IMG/VR virus record: IMGVR_UViG_3300008266_009503
Location: 1 to 64,000 of that record
Reading direction: 5' to 3' (one strand)
DNA from: a virus
DNA: 64,000 nt
Made by a program: the position numbers and the translations under genes. This document shows, piece by piece, positions 36,969-48,256 of this stretch (within the stretch, counting starts at the first letter, position 1; each line of letters starts with the position of its first letter). The notes under the pieces were generated by a model that did not search any database, was not told the origin of the DNA, and was given only the letters and a program-made list of their open reading frames with translations.

Positions 36969-37526
36969 TTATTCGAAGTTCCAATTATTTTTGAAAAATC
37001 TTATCCAGGAATCGAGGGAAGTTCCGCGAAGTAGGTTGTACATATCGTCTAAACTCTGTGCAGTATTTGAAATAGCAGCGAATCTCACTACCTCTCCTTC
37101 GTCAACTCCTTCTGTTACTTTGTGTACTACAGATCCGATAGTATCATACTTTCCTTCCCAAGCCCTGATTTGAGGATCTTTTCCTTTTAACTCTGGAAAA
37201 TAAGTAATCAGTCCAGGATGTCCGTTGTAAATCTTGCCAGTTAAGTACTGAAATAACTCTGGAGGTAGTATTCTCAAAAAGCCATGCAACGTAATTAACT
37301 TCTTTTCTAGTAGTTCTGGAATAAGATAATCTTCTAGAGTAGGTCTAAACGGCATCTCTTTTACGGTCACCCCTAATTCTACAAGAGATTTTAAGGTCTC
37401 TAGGGGCATCTTACGTATGTTATTGGTAATAAGAAGACTGGGGAGAAACCCAGTCTCTTTACTTATAGCAATAACTTCTGATCCGGTCTGCGAGATAAGT
37501 ACTCCCCAGTCTTTACATACTTTCAT
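36969..37526 (-). CDS. PurN-like formyltransferase (DpdN-like preQ1 formyltransferase candidate)
   Basis: GFLRILP, YNGHPGL, VVHKVTEGVDEGEV; translationally coupled to queF. Confidence 0.8.
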   Translation of the reverse strand: MKVCKDWGVLISQTGSEVIAISKETGFLPSLLITNNIRKMPLETLKSLVELGVTVKEMPFRPTLEDYLIPELLEKKLITLHGFLRILPPELFQYLTGKIYNGHPGLITYFPELKGKDPQIRAWEGKYDTIGSVVHKVTEGVDEGEVVRFAAISNTAQSLDDMYNLLRGTSLDSWIRFFKNNWNFE

Positions 37527-38446
37527 TACTGTCCCATTGCTTTTTTAGTGTAATAGTTTTTAGACCTTAAAGCTACCGGAATAAGTGCTTCTTTACTTGC
37601 ACGTACTGGACAGATATCTAGAGACCCTCTTCGTGCATAAAGTAGCATTACGCAGCAATCCTGTACTAGAGGGTTAGACATAATCTCAGTATAGAGCTTT
37701 TCTGCACAAAACTCATGAAACTCGTTTACTTCCCGTAGGGAGATAACTAACTTCAAAAGTTCTTTTTCTTTAATTGATCCTTCTTTAGTTATAATCTGAA
37801 AATAAGCAGCTCCAGTATCTTTTTGCTTTGTATGCCTGCAGCGAGACCTAAGTATGTTAGTAAAGAAAGAGATATCTTCACTTGCTTCACCGTCTTGTGC
37901 TACAATCTCATACTTCCCTGAAGCGTTGTAGTCGCTTATTTCCATAGAAGCTAATTCTTTATCCGAAATATAACCGTATAGATCAATAAAACCTTCTGTT
38001 GGGTTACCTTCTAGCATTTCATCGTCTCCAGAACCGAAGAAAGCGACTTCTACGGGGGCTCCAATACAGGCGCTAATATCCTTCTTTACTTGGTTTTCAT
38101 AATTAGCAACAGCTTCAGGAATAGTAGCTCCCATCTTACACATGTCAAACGTATTCAAGTAGAGCTTAAAGGATTTAGACTCTACCATAAATTCAGAACT
38201 TGCAGGACATACTATTTTCAATGTACCTGCTAGAGGAAGACCATTGTTAAGCAGGAAAGTAGCTTCGTGGCAATGCCATACATCATATCCTACAAATTCA
38301 TCTCCTTTAATACCCCAATCTTGACGTGCAAGAATACGCGGCATAGGATTAAGTTGTGAAGCATCAAACTGGTCTGTATAGACAGCATACGAGTTGGCCG
38401 AGCCAAGAGATTTAGCGGCGGCATCTGACATGTTATTAATTGACAT
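37526..38446 (-). CDS. queF: NADPH-dependent preQ0 reductase, bimodular type
   Basis: VESKSFKLYLN QueF motif, LRSRCRHTKQKD (Cys/Asp), FHEFC, YARRGSLDI. Confidence 0.9.
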   Translation of the reverse strand: MSINNMSDAAAKSLGSANSYAVYTDQFDASQLNPMPRILARQDWGIKGDEFVGYDVWHCHEATFLLNNGLPLAGTLKIVCPASSEFMVESKSFKLYLNTFDMCKMGATIPEAVANYENQVKKDISACIGAPVEVAFFGSGDDEMLEGNPTEGFIDLYGYISDKELASMEISDYNASGKYEIVAQDGEASEDISFFTNILRSRCRHTKQKDTGAAYFQIITKEGSIKEKELLKLVISLREVNEFHEFCAEKLYTEIMSNPLVQDCCVMLLYARRGSLDICPVRASKEALIPVALRSKNYYTKKAMGQ

Positions 38447-38466
38447 AAACTTTGTTTTTTATTAAA

Positions 38467-39129
38467 TTAAGGTATTTTATTTAACTTTCCAACTTTTTTA
38501 TAAGGACCTCTAGGCTTGCTAATCCGTTTTTTTCGAATTACTAACCTCATCTTTTCTTTTGTTTCTTCAGAATGGACGTATTTACCTACGTTACCTTTGT
38601 TATTGCTAGGCTTTCCTTTCTTGCTTTCAGACATCTTTTTTTTAGTTTCGTCCGAGCGTTTTTTATCCCTATTACTCTGCTTTATTTTTTCAATCGTCTC
38701 TCTAGAATGAAATTTACCTAGCATACCTCTAGAAGGATTTTGCTTAGCTATTTCAGATCTTTTAAGCCTTGCTGCTTGAGATAGTGTTCTATCTGATTTA
38801 GAAAAAAGTTCTTTCGCTTCTTCGTATACCCTGTTACCAGCCTTACCTCTCTTCTGGTACTGGTTCCCGCTATTACACATTTTGTAAAAAGTGTAGACTG
38901 CTTTCTTATTTGTAGGGTATATTCGTGCTAGTAGCCAATGACATAAAAAATGCTCTCGAGCAGTTAACAGTACAAGGTTAGGATGCCATTTCCATTGATG
39001 GGCTTTTCCTTCTCCGCCTAAAAACTTAGGACGTATATGGTGAGCTTCGTAGTAAGACCCGTTTCCCCTACTACGGCACTCTTTCTTAGCTTTTTCAATA
39101 ATCTGATCGTAAATTTTTTGATAGTCCAT
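38467..39129 (-). CDS. Free-standing HNH homing endonuclease with NUMOD3 repeats
   Basis: YEAHHIRP...NLVLLTAREHFLCH; HSRETIEKI, SDETKKKMS, HSEETKEKM. Confidence 0.88.
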   Translation of the reverse strand: MDYQKIYDQIIEKAKKECRSRGNGSYYEAHHIRPKFLGGEGKAHQWKWHPNLVLLTAREHFLCHWLLARIYPTNKKAVYTFYKMCNSGNQYQKRGKAGNRVYEEAKELFSKSDRTLSQAARLKRSEIAKQNPSRGMLGKFHSRETIEKIKQSNRDKKRSDETKKKMSESKKGKPSNNKGNVGKYVHSEETKEKMRLVIRKKRISKPRGPYKKVGKLNKIP

Positions 39130-39224
39130 ACAGTAAAAAATTGGCTCTTAGTCTAAGAGAGTACGGCAATACTCAATTAAACCTCGAGCCAAAAGTTTAT
39201 AGCTGTTGCCGCAGCTTTTACTGT
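39130..39224 (-). ncRNA. Structured 5' leader with kissing loops upstream of the HNH gene
   Basis: ACAGTAAAA/TTTTACTGT closing stem ending at ATG; AGCTG-CGGCAA-CAGCT and GAGTA-TTGCCG-TACTC hairpins with complementary loops; TTGGCTC/GAGCCAA stem. Confidence 0.75.
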
Positions 39225-39240
39225 AATAAATATTTAAAAG

Positions 39241-40017
39241 CTACAAATAATTTCTAAAAGTTTTTACGTTTTTAAAAATTAAATCTAACTGCTCTTCTTT
39301 TAACTCGATATCAAGATTATCAGCAAGCTTAGCTTTAGGTTTAGGAGTAGTTAACCCGTGAGGACCTAGTTCACTACCTACCCACCCGTTTACGACAGGG
39401 GAACTTGTATCTAGGGAATATATGAGGTTAGTTATATGCCTCTGATTATACTTATAGAGTATAAATTCGACAGGGTTTTGACATCCTAGTAGGTGGAATT
39501 TAGGCATTTTACCTGAAAACTTAAACCTATTAGCATACCACCAGTTTAGAAACCTAAACCTAACTGTTACGTAATCTGAATCAGGTACTAGATCAAAAGG
39601 TAATGCAATAATATCTACATTTTTTTGCATATACAAATCAATGCAATCAGCAATTTGATCAAAAGTCTCTCCTTGACATACGCCGATATAATTTAACTTA
39701 TCAGACGCAAACTCATCGAGGTATTTTATAGCATTGCTTACGGTCTGATCATGATCGTTTACCTTATCCGGAAGTACGAGGTGAGTAGGCTTGTACGCCT
39801 CTCCTAACTCATATAACTCTTCCATTGGAATAGACTGCCCTAATTCAAAAGCAGAATTGTCTAGGATAGAATAAGGGGCTGTTTGTAACTTCTCTTTATA
39901 AAACTCTGCATACTCCTTATCTTGATTTAGCAAATGACCTAACACGTAAGGGTAATCGCTAATTAAATCGTGGTAAGGAAATAACTGCTTTGGAATTTCG
40001 TGACTAATCTGTATCAT
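39241..40017 (-). CDS. TGT-fold 7-deazaguanine transglycosylase-like protein (DpdA family)
   Basis: ILDNSAFE, LVLPD, VCQG, HLLG, SLDTSS; embedded between queC and queF. Confidence 0.7.
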   Translation of the reverse strand: MIQISHEIPKQLFPYHDLISDYPYVLGHLLNQDKEYAEFYKEKLQTAPYSILDNSAFELGQSIPMEELYELGEAYKPTHLVLPDKVNDHDQTVSNAIKYLDEFASDKLNYIGVCQGETFDQIADCIDLYMQKNVDIIALPFDLVPDSDYVTVRFRFLNWWYANRFKFSGKMPKFHLLGCQNPVEFILYKYNQRHITNLIYSLDTSSPVVNGWVGSELGPHGLTTPKPKAKLADNLDIELKEEQLDLIFKNVKTFRNYL

Positions 40018-40020
40018 CTT

Positions 40021-40878
40021 TTATTTATTATGTTCTGCTAATACATTTTCAACGTGTGCTCTAGCTACTTCCCAGCTAACAGGACCTCTTTCATCAGCAT
40101 AATCTACAGGATCAGGACGTCCTAGTTTAATAAATGCTTCAATACGCTCTACTGATGCTGCTGATTTATAGTCGCTAAACCAGTACCCTTCTTTCGATTC
40201 ATACAGAACTATGTCTCCATCTAATGTCTGAGCTTTAGGAATCCAAATAGGTTTATAGCTTGTATTGGTTCTTTTGTATACTTCATCAAAGTTAATACCA
40301 AGCTTCTCACAACACTCGAGACCGTCTTTTAAAATATCGAACTTATTAACTTCCAAATAAGGCGTGTAATAAGAAACGCGATCAGCATGCCAGTTACCAA
40401 CCCTAAAAGCGGTATCATCTGCATCACGGAATTCTTGACGGCAGTCCGGGTAGATAGCATGATCGCCTGCATGAATACCCATAGCGATTTTAACTTCTGT
40501 TTCATTTTTAGTGGCAATTGATAAAGCTACCGCCTGAATAAGCGAGCTAAAAATTTTATTACGGTTAGGTACTACAGTATCTTTCATATTATCCTGTTCG
40601 TAGTGTCCTTCGGGTATATCCCATCCGCCTTCTACAAGGGCTGAATTGAGTAGTTGAGTAATACCGTCAATCTTAATTACCTGGTGTCTCACATAAGGAG
40701 TAGTACAGTCTGAATTAAGATACTCGATCAGAGATTTAGCTCTTTCAAGCTCTACTCTATGTTTTTGTCCGTAGTCAAAGCTAAGAGCTGTTACTTCATA
40801 ACCGTTTGCAAGAAGGTGAAGAAGGAGAGAACTTGAGTCCATTCCACCTGACAGTGATAATACTGCTTGTTTTTTCAT
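40021..40878 (-). CDS. queC: 7-cyano-7-deazaguanine synthase
   Basis: SLSGGMDS, FDYGQKH, VPNRN, YPDCR. Confidence 0.93.
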   Translation of the reverse strand: MKKQAVLSLSGGMDSSSLLLHLLANGYEVTALSFDYGQKHRVELERAKSLIEYLNSDCTTPYVRHQVIKIDGITQLLNSALVEGGWDIPEGHYEQDNMKDTVVPNRNKIFSSLIQAVALSIATKNETEVKIAMGIHAGDHAIYPDCRQEFRDADDTAFRVGNWHADRVSYYTPYLEVNKFDILKDGLECCEKLGINFDEVYKRTNTSYKPIWIPKAQTLDGDIVLYESKEGYWFSDYKSAASVERIEAFIKLGRPDPVDYADERGPVSWEVARAHVENVLAEHNK

Positions 40879-40930
40879 TGTTAAAATAATTAAAATATAG
40901 AGCGTATTATTTTATGAATCGATTAGCTCT

Positions 40931-41143
40931 TTAACCGATTTTTTTATCTTCTTTCTTACTAATCTCCTGCTGCATAGATATTATTTGTGCAGCTAGACTA
41001 GCAGCTAAAGTTCCGAGCTGGGTCCAGAGATGGTCGCATTCTTTTTGAAACTTAAAAATTACTCTCCACTGCCAAACTTGTATAGCCATTAGGATTAAAA
41101 TAATAGCTACATAAACGTGTTCAGAACCTATTGTAAATGTCAT
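40931..41143 (-). CDS. Small membrane protein
   Basis: N-terminal TM helix. Confidence 0.5.
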   Translation of the reverse strand: MTFTIGSEHVYVAIILILMAIQVWQWRVIFKFQKECDHLWTQLGTLAASLAAQIISMQQEISKKEDKKIG

Positions 41144-41155
41144 ACTATAAAGATA

Positions 41156-41410
41156 CTACTTCTCTTCTGAATTAGCAACTGTCTCTCTCATAAAGTTATA
41201 AGCTTCTGGAGTTCCTGGAAAAGCTATAAAATTAGGTTCATTCATAGCTCTTTGTAGAATCTTAATAGTCAAATCTCTATTACGGGCATCTATCATAAGA
41301 GGTTCAAAAACAAATTCAGTATTAGAACCTTTCTTACGAACTAAGTAGTAGAGGCTTCCTGCGCCTACATGCTTAATTGCTTCGTAAAAACTTTCAGCTG
41401 TTGTTTGCAT
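41156..41410 (-). CDS. Hypothetical protein
   Basis: Operon-coupled ORF. Confidence 0.5.
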   Translation of the reverse strand: MQTTAESFYEAIKHVGAGSLYYLVRKKGSNTEFVFEPLMIDARNRDLTIKILQRAMNEPNFIAFPGTPEAYNFMRETVANSEEK

Positions 41411-41636
41411 AATATAGGTGTCTTACTTTTTTTCCTAGTTCTTGATCGTTAGGTGTATCGTGAATTATCTTCTTTGGAATGAAGAAATGTGTCTTTTCTT
41501 CTGGGTTATCGTAGCAAAGTCTGCAGAGTTGACCCATTCCTTTAATGTAGCCGTATCTAAAATCAATGTGAGTATCGACAGTGTATGGAGTTTCACCTCC
41601 ACATATTATACAATTTTCTGTTTGTGGCATATTCAT
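41394..41636 (-). CDS. Small zinc-finger protein
   Basis: CIICG...GQLCRLC...TPND. Confidence 0.55.
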   Translation of the reverse strand: MNMPQTENCIICGGETPYTVDTHIDFRYGYIKGMGQLCRLCYDNPEEKTHFFIPKKIIHDTPNDQELGKKVRHLYYANNS

Positions 41637-41739
41637 TGGTTTTTATCTTGTTTATCTGCATACCACATGGCTAACTTCAACATACCTAGCGGTACTGCAA
41701 AGGTTACTACTACTCCTAATATTAGATAAGGAACATTCA

Positions 41740-42576
41740 CTATACATTCAATGTTTTATTCCAAGCAGCAATATGTAATCTAGTCAATCCACGGAATTTA
41801 TATTTCTTAGCCATTTCAAGAACGAACTGTGTACGCTCTTCAAAGTTAGCTACATCATCCAAACCAGGCATGCAAACTACATTTTTAAGAGGTATGCTAA
41901 ATGGTACGACAAAGTCCCTAAAAAGTTCCAATACATCTTCTTCATTGCTGATTACGAATTTAAATTGATAATTTTTATGTTCCATTACTCGCCTAATAGC
42001 GGCTTCGTTGATACGTTGTTTAGCTTCTAGTCCTGAATTGGATAGCTTGGGTGAGCAGTTAATTTGATCAAGCATAGTGAATAGCTTGTCTTCAATTTTA
42101 ACTGTACCGTTTGTTTCAATTTCATAGAACGGACTAACAGTATTATCAAGATGTTTACCTAACCAGTAGTTAGTGAAGTTAACAATTGCTTGCTGATGAC
42201 CTTTAATTGTTGGTTCTCCACCCGTCCAAATAATATGAATTACACCGTTTAGAATATCATCGTAAATACCTTCATCTTTCCAGCGTTTAATTAGATAGTC
42301 AAATTCTTTATCTTCGCCTCTCCACAACCATTGGCTTGTAGAATCACAAGTCCAAGTTGCTTTACCTTCAGCCTGTAAATCACCGACGAATATTTCACCG
42401 TCTTCAAGCTTTTGTTCTTTAGCAAGTTGGTTAGCAAACTGACGAGACATTCCGCAAGTTAAGTTACAGATACCTAGACGAACAAAGTAAGAAGGTACTC
42501 CAGAGGAGATTCCCTCTCCTTGTACAGAATAAAAGTCTGAACTAATTAAAAGTTTACTTGAATCTATTTTACTCAT
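41740..42576 (-). CDS. queE: 7-carboxy-7-deazaguanine synthase (radical SAM)
   Basis: FYSVQGEG, RLGICNLTC...WTCDS (CxxxC with long insert), TGGEP, IETNG, SPKL. Confidence 0.9.
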   Translation of the reverse strand: MSKIDSSKLLISSDFYSVQGEGISSGVPSYFVRLGICNLTCGMSRQFANQLAKEQKLEDGEIFVGDLQAEGKATWTCDSTSQWLWRGEDKEFDYLIKRWKDEGIYDDILNGVIHIIWTGGEPTIKGHQQAIVNFTNYWLGKHLDNTVSPFYEIETNGTVKIEDKLFTMLDQINCSPKLSNSGLEAKQRINEAAIRRVMEHKNYQFKFVISNEEDVLELFRDFVVPFSIPLKNVVCMPGLDDVANFEERTQFVLEMAKKYKFRGLTRLHIAAWNKTLNV

Positions 42577-47560: not shown

Positions 47561-48256
47561 CTATATGTAACTAAAAACTTTTTTTCTTACGTAATAGCTC
47601 ATATTACTCGGAGCTATGTTGAAAGTTTTTGCTGCTTCTGCTGCAGATTCATATACCTCTCCGGTAGCTACATGCTGTACTTTTTTTCTAAGAGTACTAT
47701 ACTTTTCTATACGTAATTGAATTTTAGTTTTACTTCTTTTTTCATATTCCTGTTTTGTAATAAAACTAAATTCTCCTTTTTTTAACCGGCCTGTAATAGT
47801 TCCCGGAGTTAATCCCAGTATTTTTGCAGCATGCTTTCCAGATTCAAAAACAGCCCCTGTTTCATTATGTATAATTGCTGTTTTACGAGCTTCCCCTATT
47901 TTTGTCTTAGTTTCTTCGGAATGTTTCATACCGGTTCTAGTACTACTTATTCTTCTATTTCTTTCTAAAGAGTGTTTTACTCCTTTTCTGATTTTACTGA
48001 AATGTTCTTTCATTTCTTCTGTATGATGCCACCCTTTCAGAGTCTCTTTTTCCATTCGTAACCTTATGGCGTGACATGCAATTTCATCTCCCTGCTCTAA
48101 ATGTATTTTATAGTGATCCTCTATGGTAATACATTTTAAATTTTCTAAAGAGTTATTTTTTCTGTTTCCGTCAACATGATGTATCTCGTAACTCCTACCT
48201 TGTTCGTCTACCGGGATAGGGCCGTAGTGTTTTTCCCAAAGTTTTCGATAGTTCAT
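47561..48256 (-). CDS. HNH homing endonuclease with NUMOD3/NUMOD1 domains (start MNYRK at 48256)
   Basis: EIHHVDGNRKNNSLENL...H; HSEETKTKIG; TGEVYESAAEAAK. Confidence 0.88.
   Translation of the reverse strand: MNYRKLWEKHYGPIPVDEQGRSYEIHHVDGNRKNNSLENLKCITIEDHYKIHLEQGDEIACHAIRLRMEKETLKGWHHTEEMKEHFSKIRKGVKHSLERNRRISSTRTGMKHSEETKTKIGEARKTAIIHNETGAVFESGKHAAKILGLTPGTITGRLKKGEFSFITKQEYEKRSKTKIQLRIEKYSTLRKKVQHVATGEVYESAAEAAKTFNIAPSNMSYYVRKKVFSYI

Follow-up and report, generated by a model that had tools for sequence, protein, structure and literature searches.

A folded RNA lies directly ahead of a free-standing HNH endonuclease gene in the window (the whole stretch of viral DNA analyzed here, 64,000 nucleotides, positions 1 to 64,000 of IMG/VR record IMGVR_UViG_3300008266_009503), and our analyses confirm that it is real: its two hairpins carry complementary loops, and this complementarity is kept by compensatory changes in related leaders. 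The RNA is part of a portable promoter-leader module, chiefly of homing endonuclease cassettes, and belongs to a large family whose phages probably infect Bacteroidota. With moderate confidence, we read it as a negative control element acting in cis, which would keep nuclease output low through attenuation, occlusion of the start region, or both.

Leader fold and mobile cassette

The leader, its gene, and their neighbors occupy the following positions in the window.

39241-40017: dpdA-like gene, upstream neighbor
38447..39240, minus strand: inserted cassette of 794 bp, comprising the promoter-like motif, the leader, the HNH gene, and a 20-nt spacer
39130-39232, minus strand: kissing-loop leader RNA, the 103-nt 5′ leader of the HNH cassette
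39226..39232, minus strand: promoter-like TATTTAT motif, immediately 5′ of the leader
39225-39216 with 39138-39129, minus strand: closing stem P1, UACAGUAAAA with UUUUACUGUA, from the minimum free energy (MFE) fold
39216..39225, minus strand: 5′ strand of P1, (U)ACAGUAAAA, an A-rich anti-start strand pairing with 39129-39138 in the MFE fold
39201..39216, minus strand: hairpin 1, AGCUG-CGGCAA-CAGCU, with loop L1 at 39206-39211
39141..39192, minus strand: hairpin 2, three helical segments and two internal loops, with apical loop L2 at 39164-39169
39135..39140, minus strand: U-tract UUUUUU, which abuts the base of hairpin 2 and is terminator-like together with it
39129..39138, minus strand: 3′ strand of P1, UUUUACUGU plus the A of AUG, the initiation region predicted by the MFE fold to be sequestered
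38467..39129, minus strand: free-standing HNH-NUMOD3 homing endonuclease gene, 220 amino acids (Pfam, PHROG, tblastn)
37526-38446: queF, downstream neighbor

The fold was computed for the 106 nt of the minus strand that span TATTTAT through ATG (39232..39127). It reproduced the structure that a sequence-only reading of this DNA had proposed, with an MFE of −38.2 kcal/mol; 200 dinucleotide shuffles gave −19.4 ± 3.0 and none equaled the leader (z = −6.27), bearing out the view that such a set of pairings is unlikely by chance. The opposite strand folds more weakly (−30.9, z = −4.31). P1 reaches the start codon as had been claimed, its last pair being formed by the A of AUG. Hairpin 2 has an outer stem, UUGGCUC/GAGCCAA (39192-39186 with 39147-39141), and the apex GAGUA-UUGCCG-UACUC, and the two loops are, as originally seen, exact reverse complements: L1 is CGGCAA (39211-39206) and L2 is UUGCCG (39169-39164). 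The same reading had noted that the second HNH gene of the window (47561-48256) lacks the leader, and indeed only TATTTAT and 15 nt precede its ATG. One copy was found by the A-type model in the 73.7-kb record (IMG/VR contig).

The TATTTAT motif is a putative promoter. In the sense direction it occurs at 29 sites of the window, 15 of them within the 8.4% that is intergenic and usually 1 to 25 nt before a start codon, versus nine antisense sites, two of which are intergenic; this enrichment points to a recurrent upstream signal of the phage. The motif stands at the same leader position in all copies of the A type, to which the window's leader belongs, and of the C type (leader types are described below). 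At that position the B-type copies carry TAnnTTTG (35/55) or TATTTAT (10/55), ending mostly 3 to 6 nt before hairpin 1. TAnnTTTG is the −7 promoter box of Bacteroidota; its presence points to Bacteroidota hosts, and its position would put hairpin 1 at the extreme 5′ end of the cassette transcript. An antisense promoter was also considered, the reverse complement of TATTTATA being TATAAATA, the T4 late promoter, and was rejected given that the motif is enriched in the sense direction and upstream of genes. Elsewhere in the window, (C)TATTTAT(T) often lies 1 to 9 nt before an ATG (15 intergenic sites, e.g., 5001, 6419, 2903, and 52174, + strand). Should TATTTAT be a −10-like promoter element, a large number of the phage's mRNAs would have little or no leader.

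The HNH gene matches Pfam NUMOD3 (6.4e-09) and PHROG 655, “homing endonuclease” (1.8e-38), and its product shares 32 to 39% identity with annotated phage homing endonucleases (tblastn). The cassette is mobile. It is surrounded by a queC/queE/queF/formyltransferase cluster, and 38 related viral loci were gathered by means of their DpdA-like protein (71 to 87% identity); in 37 of these 38, an HNH gene and intergenic DNA are both absent and the dpdA and queF genes share a few bases, which identifies 38447-39240 as an insertion at the dpdA/queF junction. A homologous HNH cassette occupies the same dpdA/queF site in L218, where the leader is 83% identical to that of the window and the protein just 46%, so that the leader is conserved above its gene. 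The cassette is present in lake and freshwater metagenome contigs from several studies; in the region's contigs from four DNA runs, the cassette was present and no empty-site joint was seen.

The 7-deazaguanine cluster as a whole (queE, queC, the DpdA-like gene, queF, and a PurN-like formyltransferase gene; window 36969-42576) is a hot spot for homing elements: L218 also has a gene for a 313-amino-acid GIY-YIG protein between queC and dpdA (L218:1321-2262), and in L216 about 1 kb is inserted between the same two genes. Across the window (1-64000), a single strand, the minus strand, holds 82 of the 83 open reading frames (ORFs), and the phage genes include those for a PolA-type DNA polymerase, a DnaB-like helicase, a ribonucleotide reductase, and a GroEL-like chaperonin.

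Loop-loop covariation and leader types

Related leaders were collected from metagenome and viral contigs by a leader-independent scan for the conserved N terminus M[DN]YQKIYDQI and by a second scan for the hairpin-2 pattern in which both loops were left free. Exact 16-base hairpin-1 patterns had about 100 IMG/VR matches each and were discarded as chance matches, with the exception of the L218 contig.

Seven close leaders form the A type (the window, L103, L218, L333, L344, L369, and L374). In their alignment (A5), the L1-L2 helix is paired in all seven, with double-sided changes at four of its six positions; the loop pairs are CGGCAA/UUGCCG (four copies), CCCUCA/UGAGGG, CUGGCA/UGCCAG, and CUGCAA/UUGCAG. 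The other helices are 98 to 100% paired and nearly invariant, and the stem of hairpin 1 is retained in every copy (7/7). One C-G pair of P1 is replaced by U-A in L103, L333, L344, and L374 and by U·G in L369, and is a C·A mismatch in L218. Between L333 and L344, 8 of the 12 loop bases differ, as do about 5 of the remaining ~99 positions. More distant leaders, which precede HNH genes of the same kind, share this layout although their loop sequences are unrelated: GGUCGGAG/CUCCGACC in L029, GUAACGG/CCGUUAC in L342, CUGGUCC/GGACCAG in L336, CUGUGAA/UUCACAG in L329, GCUACUACC/GGUAGUAGC in L354, and CCUGAAC/GUUCAGG in L335. Cognate loops match over 6 to 9 nt, compared with 1 to 5 nt for non-cognate combinations.

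Other arrangements also occur upstream of such genes. L345 and L351, ahead of an MNYQKIYDQII gene, have a minimal variant consisting of an 11-bp hairpin, ATGCCTATTTA/TAAATAGGCAT, followed by TTTTTTATTATG; here TATTTAT sits in the 5′ strand of the hairpin, as in T4, and an RNA initiated at this promoter would lack the hairpin. In L024 and L355, a pseudoknot-like element is found about 40 to 75 nt before the HNH start, where a CCTGGGGA/TCCCCAGG hairpin is preceded on its 5′ side by ATAGAAATTA, which is complementary to the hairpin loop; the element is followed by a ATATTTAT motif and a small start-proximal hairpin.

The B type was defined from an apex common to L029, L339, and L342, (A/G)AGUAGAG-[L2]-CCUCGAAAG. 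A scan with this apex only returned at least 119 stretches, 105 of them distinct among the matches listed. With no selection for pairing, 65 of these 105 distinct stretches among the matches listed have a perfect complement to L2 of at least 7 nt within 75 nt upstream, compared with 0.8% in shuffles and with 2/105 within 75 nt downstream. In an alignment of 55 non-redundant copies (A3), 93% of the cells are paired over all helices and the covariation score is 0.66 versus 0.18 for shuffled alignments, although the kissing-helix figures of A3 are inflated by the selection of copies, so that 65/105 versus 0.8% are the unbiased ones. Many double-sided changes were also seen in the stem of hairpin 1 and in the basal stem of hairpin 2. 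Loop-loop complementarity, for which the sequence-only reading had looked to homologs, is thus conserved by compensatory changes both in the A type (7/7) and among the B-type pattern matches.

A covariance model of the B type built without the pseudoknot (R1) recovered about 80 copies, and two unselected copies found in this way kiss as well: L466 (UUCGCGG/CCGCGAA) and L480 (GGUCAG/CUGACC), the latter with an apex that differs from the B-type apex. In a partial copy, L470:1-62, the 3-bp apical stem GAG/CUC has become GUG/CAC. Columns 74 to 99 of A3 hold an invariant apex, AGUAGAG...CCUCGAAA, in which AGUA and GAA surround a 3-bp stem; we take this module to fit, as a prediction, the bulged-G motif of the sarcin-ricin loop or loop E, a motif that often binds protein. 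R1 found no B-type copy in the window and did not detect the window's leader, and the A-type model (R2) reaches C- and B-type leaders only weakly (L329, E = 0.003). The three types therefore have a common architecture and distinct models, and judging from these sequence comparisons they are probably remote relatives.

The compensatory changes also bear on whether the complementary hexamers might be inverted repeats acting at the DNA level in recombination or as nuclease sites, or simply an accident of AT-rich sequence. One locus would fit: at L444:7031-7158, the hairpin-2 part is inverted relative to the promoter and hairpin 1, suggesting that the short inverted repeats may occasionally recombine. 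Even so, we regard a DNA feature or chance as hardly credible, since Watson-Crick and G-U pairing is maintained by the compensatory changes for just one of the strands, folding is stronger in the sense than in the antisense direction, orientation relative to the promoter and ORF is the same in essentially every copy, and the element is common to three unrelated nuclease families. L444 itself is rearranged, with hairpin 2 in one orientation and the TATTTAT promoter and hairpin 1 on the other strand; owing to the opposite orientations, its loops are identical on either RNA and non-complementary, and the locus may have arisen by inversion between the short L1/L2 inverted repeats.

The loops change far more rapidly than the rest of the leader. 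Among pairs of leaders with at least 95% core identity, L1 differs at 0.35 per site versus 0.04 per site elsewhere (~9-fold); contigs with two copies have differing codes (L103/L374, L466, and L480), and the same three codes recur across gene contexts. A purely structural lock does not predict this behavior, which points to selection that keeps codes distinct and free of cross-reaction, and possibly to pairing in trans.

The loops could accordingly be specificity codes for RNA-RNA recognition, with a terminated short RNA or another leader copy kissing nascent leaders, or with leaders dimerizing through L1 and the L2 of a partner (L2′), for which the dimerizing pRNA of phi29 is a model. In the first case, the codes would provide control of dosage or incompatibility for each cassette, in the manner of antisense copy control in plasmids. 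Besides the hypervariable loops (including the 8/12 of L333 and L344) and the differing codes in two-copy contigs, a promoter, a ~95-nt RNA, and a terminator follow one another as they do in a small-RNA gene, and by our estimate the 8-nt linker of the window's leader strains an intramolecular kiss. We nevertheless consider pairing in trans unlikely. Covariation is blind to whether pairing is in cis or in trans, the ORF follows at a tightly fixed short distance that fits a leader and not a free small-RNA gene, the genome of the window has a single copy in 73.7 kb, and the number of codes is large enough for differing ones to meet in one genome by chance. A strong form of this idea, to which we likewise assign a low probability, is a hypervariable “address code” by which each leader would recognize only itself or its own terminated RNA through a private kiss of 6 to 8 bp. 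If true, it would amount to orthogonal RNA recognition and would allow selfish nuclease cassettes to be dosed independently within one phage or among co-infecting phages, making it an analog in phage homing elements of plasmid incompatibility determinants.

Downstream genes, and proposed termination and start occlusion

The genes headed by the leader are varied. Five of the A-type copies precede HNH-NUMOD3 genes and two (L103 and L369) precede GIY-YIG genes. An ORF follows 54 of the 55 B-type copies, mostly 17 to 29 nt past the conserved core; by Pfam, these ORFs encode NUMOD4 plus HNH_3 (16 copies), NUMOD3 (6), DUF6291 (6), prim-pol/DUF3987 (2), several other HNH families, GIY-YIG, and EndoVII proteins, and some replisome-organizer-like proteins. 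An RNA partner of the nuclease in the sense of HEARO or omegaRNA, one of the two roles envisaged by the sequence-only reading, is not supported by this result: a leader that also stands before GIY-YIG, NUMOD4-HNH, EndoVII-like, replisome-organizer, and prim-pol genes is no guide RNA tied to one nuclease. It goes instead with the promoter and the cassette, not with one protein.

The same diversity makes general autoregulation by the encoded protein unlikely, the downstream proteins being unrelated. This weighs on a further reading, in which the leader is an operator bound by an RNA-binding regulator of the phage or host, or by a ribosomal protein at the loop-E-like module of the B type, and in which the kiss only builds the binding surface. 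The invariant AGUA...GAA module around the 3-bp stem of B-type hairpin 2 would suit such a role, and I-TevI does autorepress, though through DNA binding (PMC2988022). However, the A-type leader of the window is without the loop-E-like module and no candidate binder was identified, and we think a protein-bound operator very unlikely.

In the window, the stable stem UUGGCUC/GAGCCAA followed by UUUUUU, together with the A-rich strand, is built like an intrinsic terminator. All A- and C-type copies have the U-run that follows hairpin 2, and in the B-type alignment its conservation is 90% or higher. Against termination stands the length of hairpin 2 and its interruptions; a simple terminator scan, run with a sigma-70 promoter scan, did not call it because the loop part is long.

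From the base of hairpin 2 to the AUG there are only about 8 to 19 nt, and the U-rich tract is paired, as far as the AUG, with the A-rich strand. P1 is predicted to cover positions −9 to +1 in the window; in L333, L344, and L374, and also in L369, it is predicted to reach into TATTTAT and to pair the whole AUG. P1 begins 1 nt after the end of TATTTAT in the window, and motif and helix overlap in other A-type copies. The predicted unpaired probability at −9 to −1 is 0.10 to 0.22 in A-type leaders, and the predicted accessibility of −15 to +3 is 0.34 to 0.39 for leaders, with a mean of 0.39 in the A type, versus 0.56 for 48 other genes of the window. These predictions agree with sequestration of the start region. 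The initiation region has no Shine-Dalgarno sequence. Bacteroidota initiate translation without Shine-Dalgarno pairing, and poor initiation would matter where hosts depend on an unstructured start region.

The conserved U-run, the start region predicted to be occluded, and the L1-L2 pairing, present in every type, lead us to propose that the leader is a cis-acting brake. Hairpin 2 and the U-tract would halt a share of the transcripts before the ORF. Transcripts escaping termination would have their initiation region masked by the A-rich/U-rich helix together with the base of hairpin 2, and the L1-L2 kiss would lock the fold or speed its formation. In the A type, where P1 extends with its 5′ strand into the promoter motif, only RNAs started in the upstream operon and reading through would be able to form the full sequestering helix, following the logic of I-TevI. 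In the B type, the A-rich strand is downstream of hairpin 1 and would always be transcribed, so that promoter discrimination of the T4 style cannot hold across the family. The translational switch proposed in the sequence-only reading thus stands as a possibility but appears incomplete, as hairpin 2 and the U-tract are also terminator-like and the junction has no conservation of the ligand type.

The kiss itself may be dynamic. In the window the linker that joins the hairpins measures 8 nt, against about 20 stacked pairs in hairpin 2; by geometric estimate, an intramolecular kiss would need a sharply bent hairpin 2 or would compete with the outer stem or P1. Given the strain of so short a linker, the kiss could belong to a switch instead of acting as a static clamp, and a static picture in which all helices form at once may be wrong.

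An effect in the opposite direction was also weighed, in which the leader would stabilize or insulate the cassette and queF mRNA against 5′-end-dependent or 5′-to-3′ decay, its 5′-terminal hairpin being tied by the pseudoknot to the next hairpin, or would be a put-like antiterminator preventing polarity. Hairpin 1 does lie a few nucleotides from the predicted transcript start in nearly all copies. The cassette interrupts the dpdA-queF pair, which is translationally coupled in relatives, so that the phage would need downstream expression restored, and B-type copies head replication genes, the expression of which is required. Such a role nonetheless seems improbable to us: the predicted accessibility of the start region is lower than for other genes, the conserved U-tract after a stem favors termination over protection, and the nuclease leaders of T-even phages are repressive (PMC2988022).

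Relation to known RNAs and cassette controls

As the sequence-only reading had suggested should be checked, Rfam was searched, and the leader belongs to no family of Rfam 15. The best match in the window was MtlS, at 20.4 bits versus a gathering score of 80; nothing reached the gathering threshold on the leaders of eight related loci, the L339 leader gave weak chance matches only, and permissive E-values yielded no credible family for the leader. A description of this RNA was found neither in Rfam 15 nor in full-text literature searches, and the region had no blastn match among 50,697 phage records. HMP2_4078, a candidate RNA of Bacteroidetes near D5_N/integrase genes (PMC8040213) and known here by its description alone, may overlap with the B type.

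Like HEARO and the omegaRNA of IscB, the leader is a structured RNA adjoining a gene for an HNH-domain protein; unlike them, it is 5′ of the ORF, has no guide segment and no Rfam match, and is common to GIY-YIG and non-nuclease genes. The purine riboswitch is a three-way junction with a loop-loop contact (L2-L3) in which P1 controls the expression platform. The A-type leader is similarly a P1-closed three-way junction with two hairpins and paired loops, but one arm is 5 bp and the other about 20 bp, all loop bases are Watson-Crick paired, and there is no Rfam match. Invariant nucleotides of the kind that form a ligand pocket were not seen in the alignments, the joining regions differing in length as well as sequence between the A, B, and C types and partly within the A type; the conserved positions of the leader are the stems, the promoter motif, and the U-tract.

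Complementary loops of 6 to 8 nt serve as varying specificity codes in the antisense systems of plasmids, namely ColE1 RNAI/RNAII, R1 CopA/CopT, and pT181, and in pT181 attenuation the kiss decides whether a terminator forms. In plasmid antisense control, however, the partner is a separate transcript, whereas here a single sense transcript carries both loops and there is no sign of an antisense promoter. A similarly portable element is the PeSL (“promoter-early stem-loop”) cassette of T4-type phages, said to have been described by Arbiol et al. in 2010 and reportedly made up of a terminator stem-loop and then a sigma-70 promoter. As here, a short portable module of promoter and stem-loop precedes differing accessory ORFs and is shuffled among genomes; the PeSL differs in being without long-range RNA pairing.

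Homing endonuclease genes need enough expression to spread and not so much that they harm their carrier. To our knowledge, the control of their expression outside the T-even phages is largely unknown, and in uncultured phages probably of Bacteroidota a single portable leader is used by three or more nuclease families that are unrelated to one another. The leader is also an annotation marker for mobile cassettes in phage metagenomes, and its unusually clean loop-loop covariation would make it well suited as a model of intramolecular kissing complexes, of terminator or translation control in Bacteroidota, and possibly of orthogonal RNA codes.

In T-even phages, homing endonucleases are repressed by start-sequestering hairpins, embedded promoters, and 5′ terminators (PMC2988022). 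The leaders of I-TevI, I-TevII, I-TevIII, segB, and Aeh1 mobE sequester the start of a selfish nuclease gene in a structure, with a phage promoter at or in the 5′ strand so that only some transcripts carry the full helix (Edgell, Gibb, and Belfort 2010, PMC2988022). The present leader is likewise predicted to sequester the start, and its promoter-like motif may be similarly placed, P1 reaching into TATTTAT in L333, L344, and L374. Those leaders are single hairpins over a Shine-Dalgarno sequence, whereas the present one has two hairpins, a covarying loop-loop helix, and no Shine-Dalgarno sequence; it also has a terminator-like U-tract, shows no sequence similarity to them, and comes from another phage and host group. 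The 5′ terminators of T4 mobE and segF, which are presumed to reduce nuclease-containing transcripts, likewise consist of a stem and poly(U) where a free-standing nuclease gene begins (PMC2988022). They are inside the coding region and stand alone, whereas here the corresponding element is between promoter and AUG and its loop pairs with an upstream hairpin. The homing endonuclease leaders, promoters, and terminators of the T-even phages are the closest known systems, with what would be the same purpose and a different, much simpler RNA.
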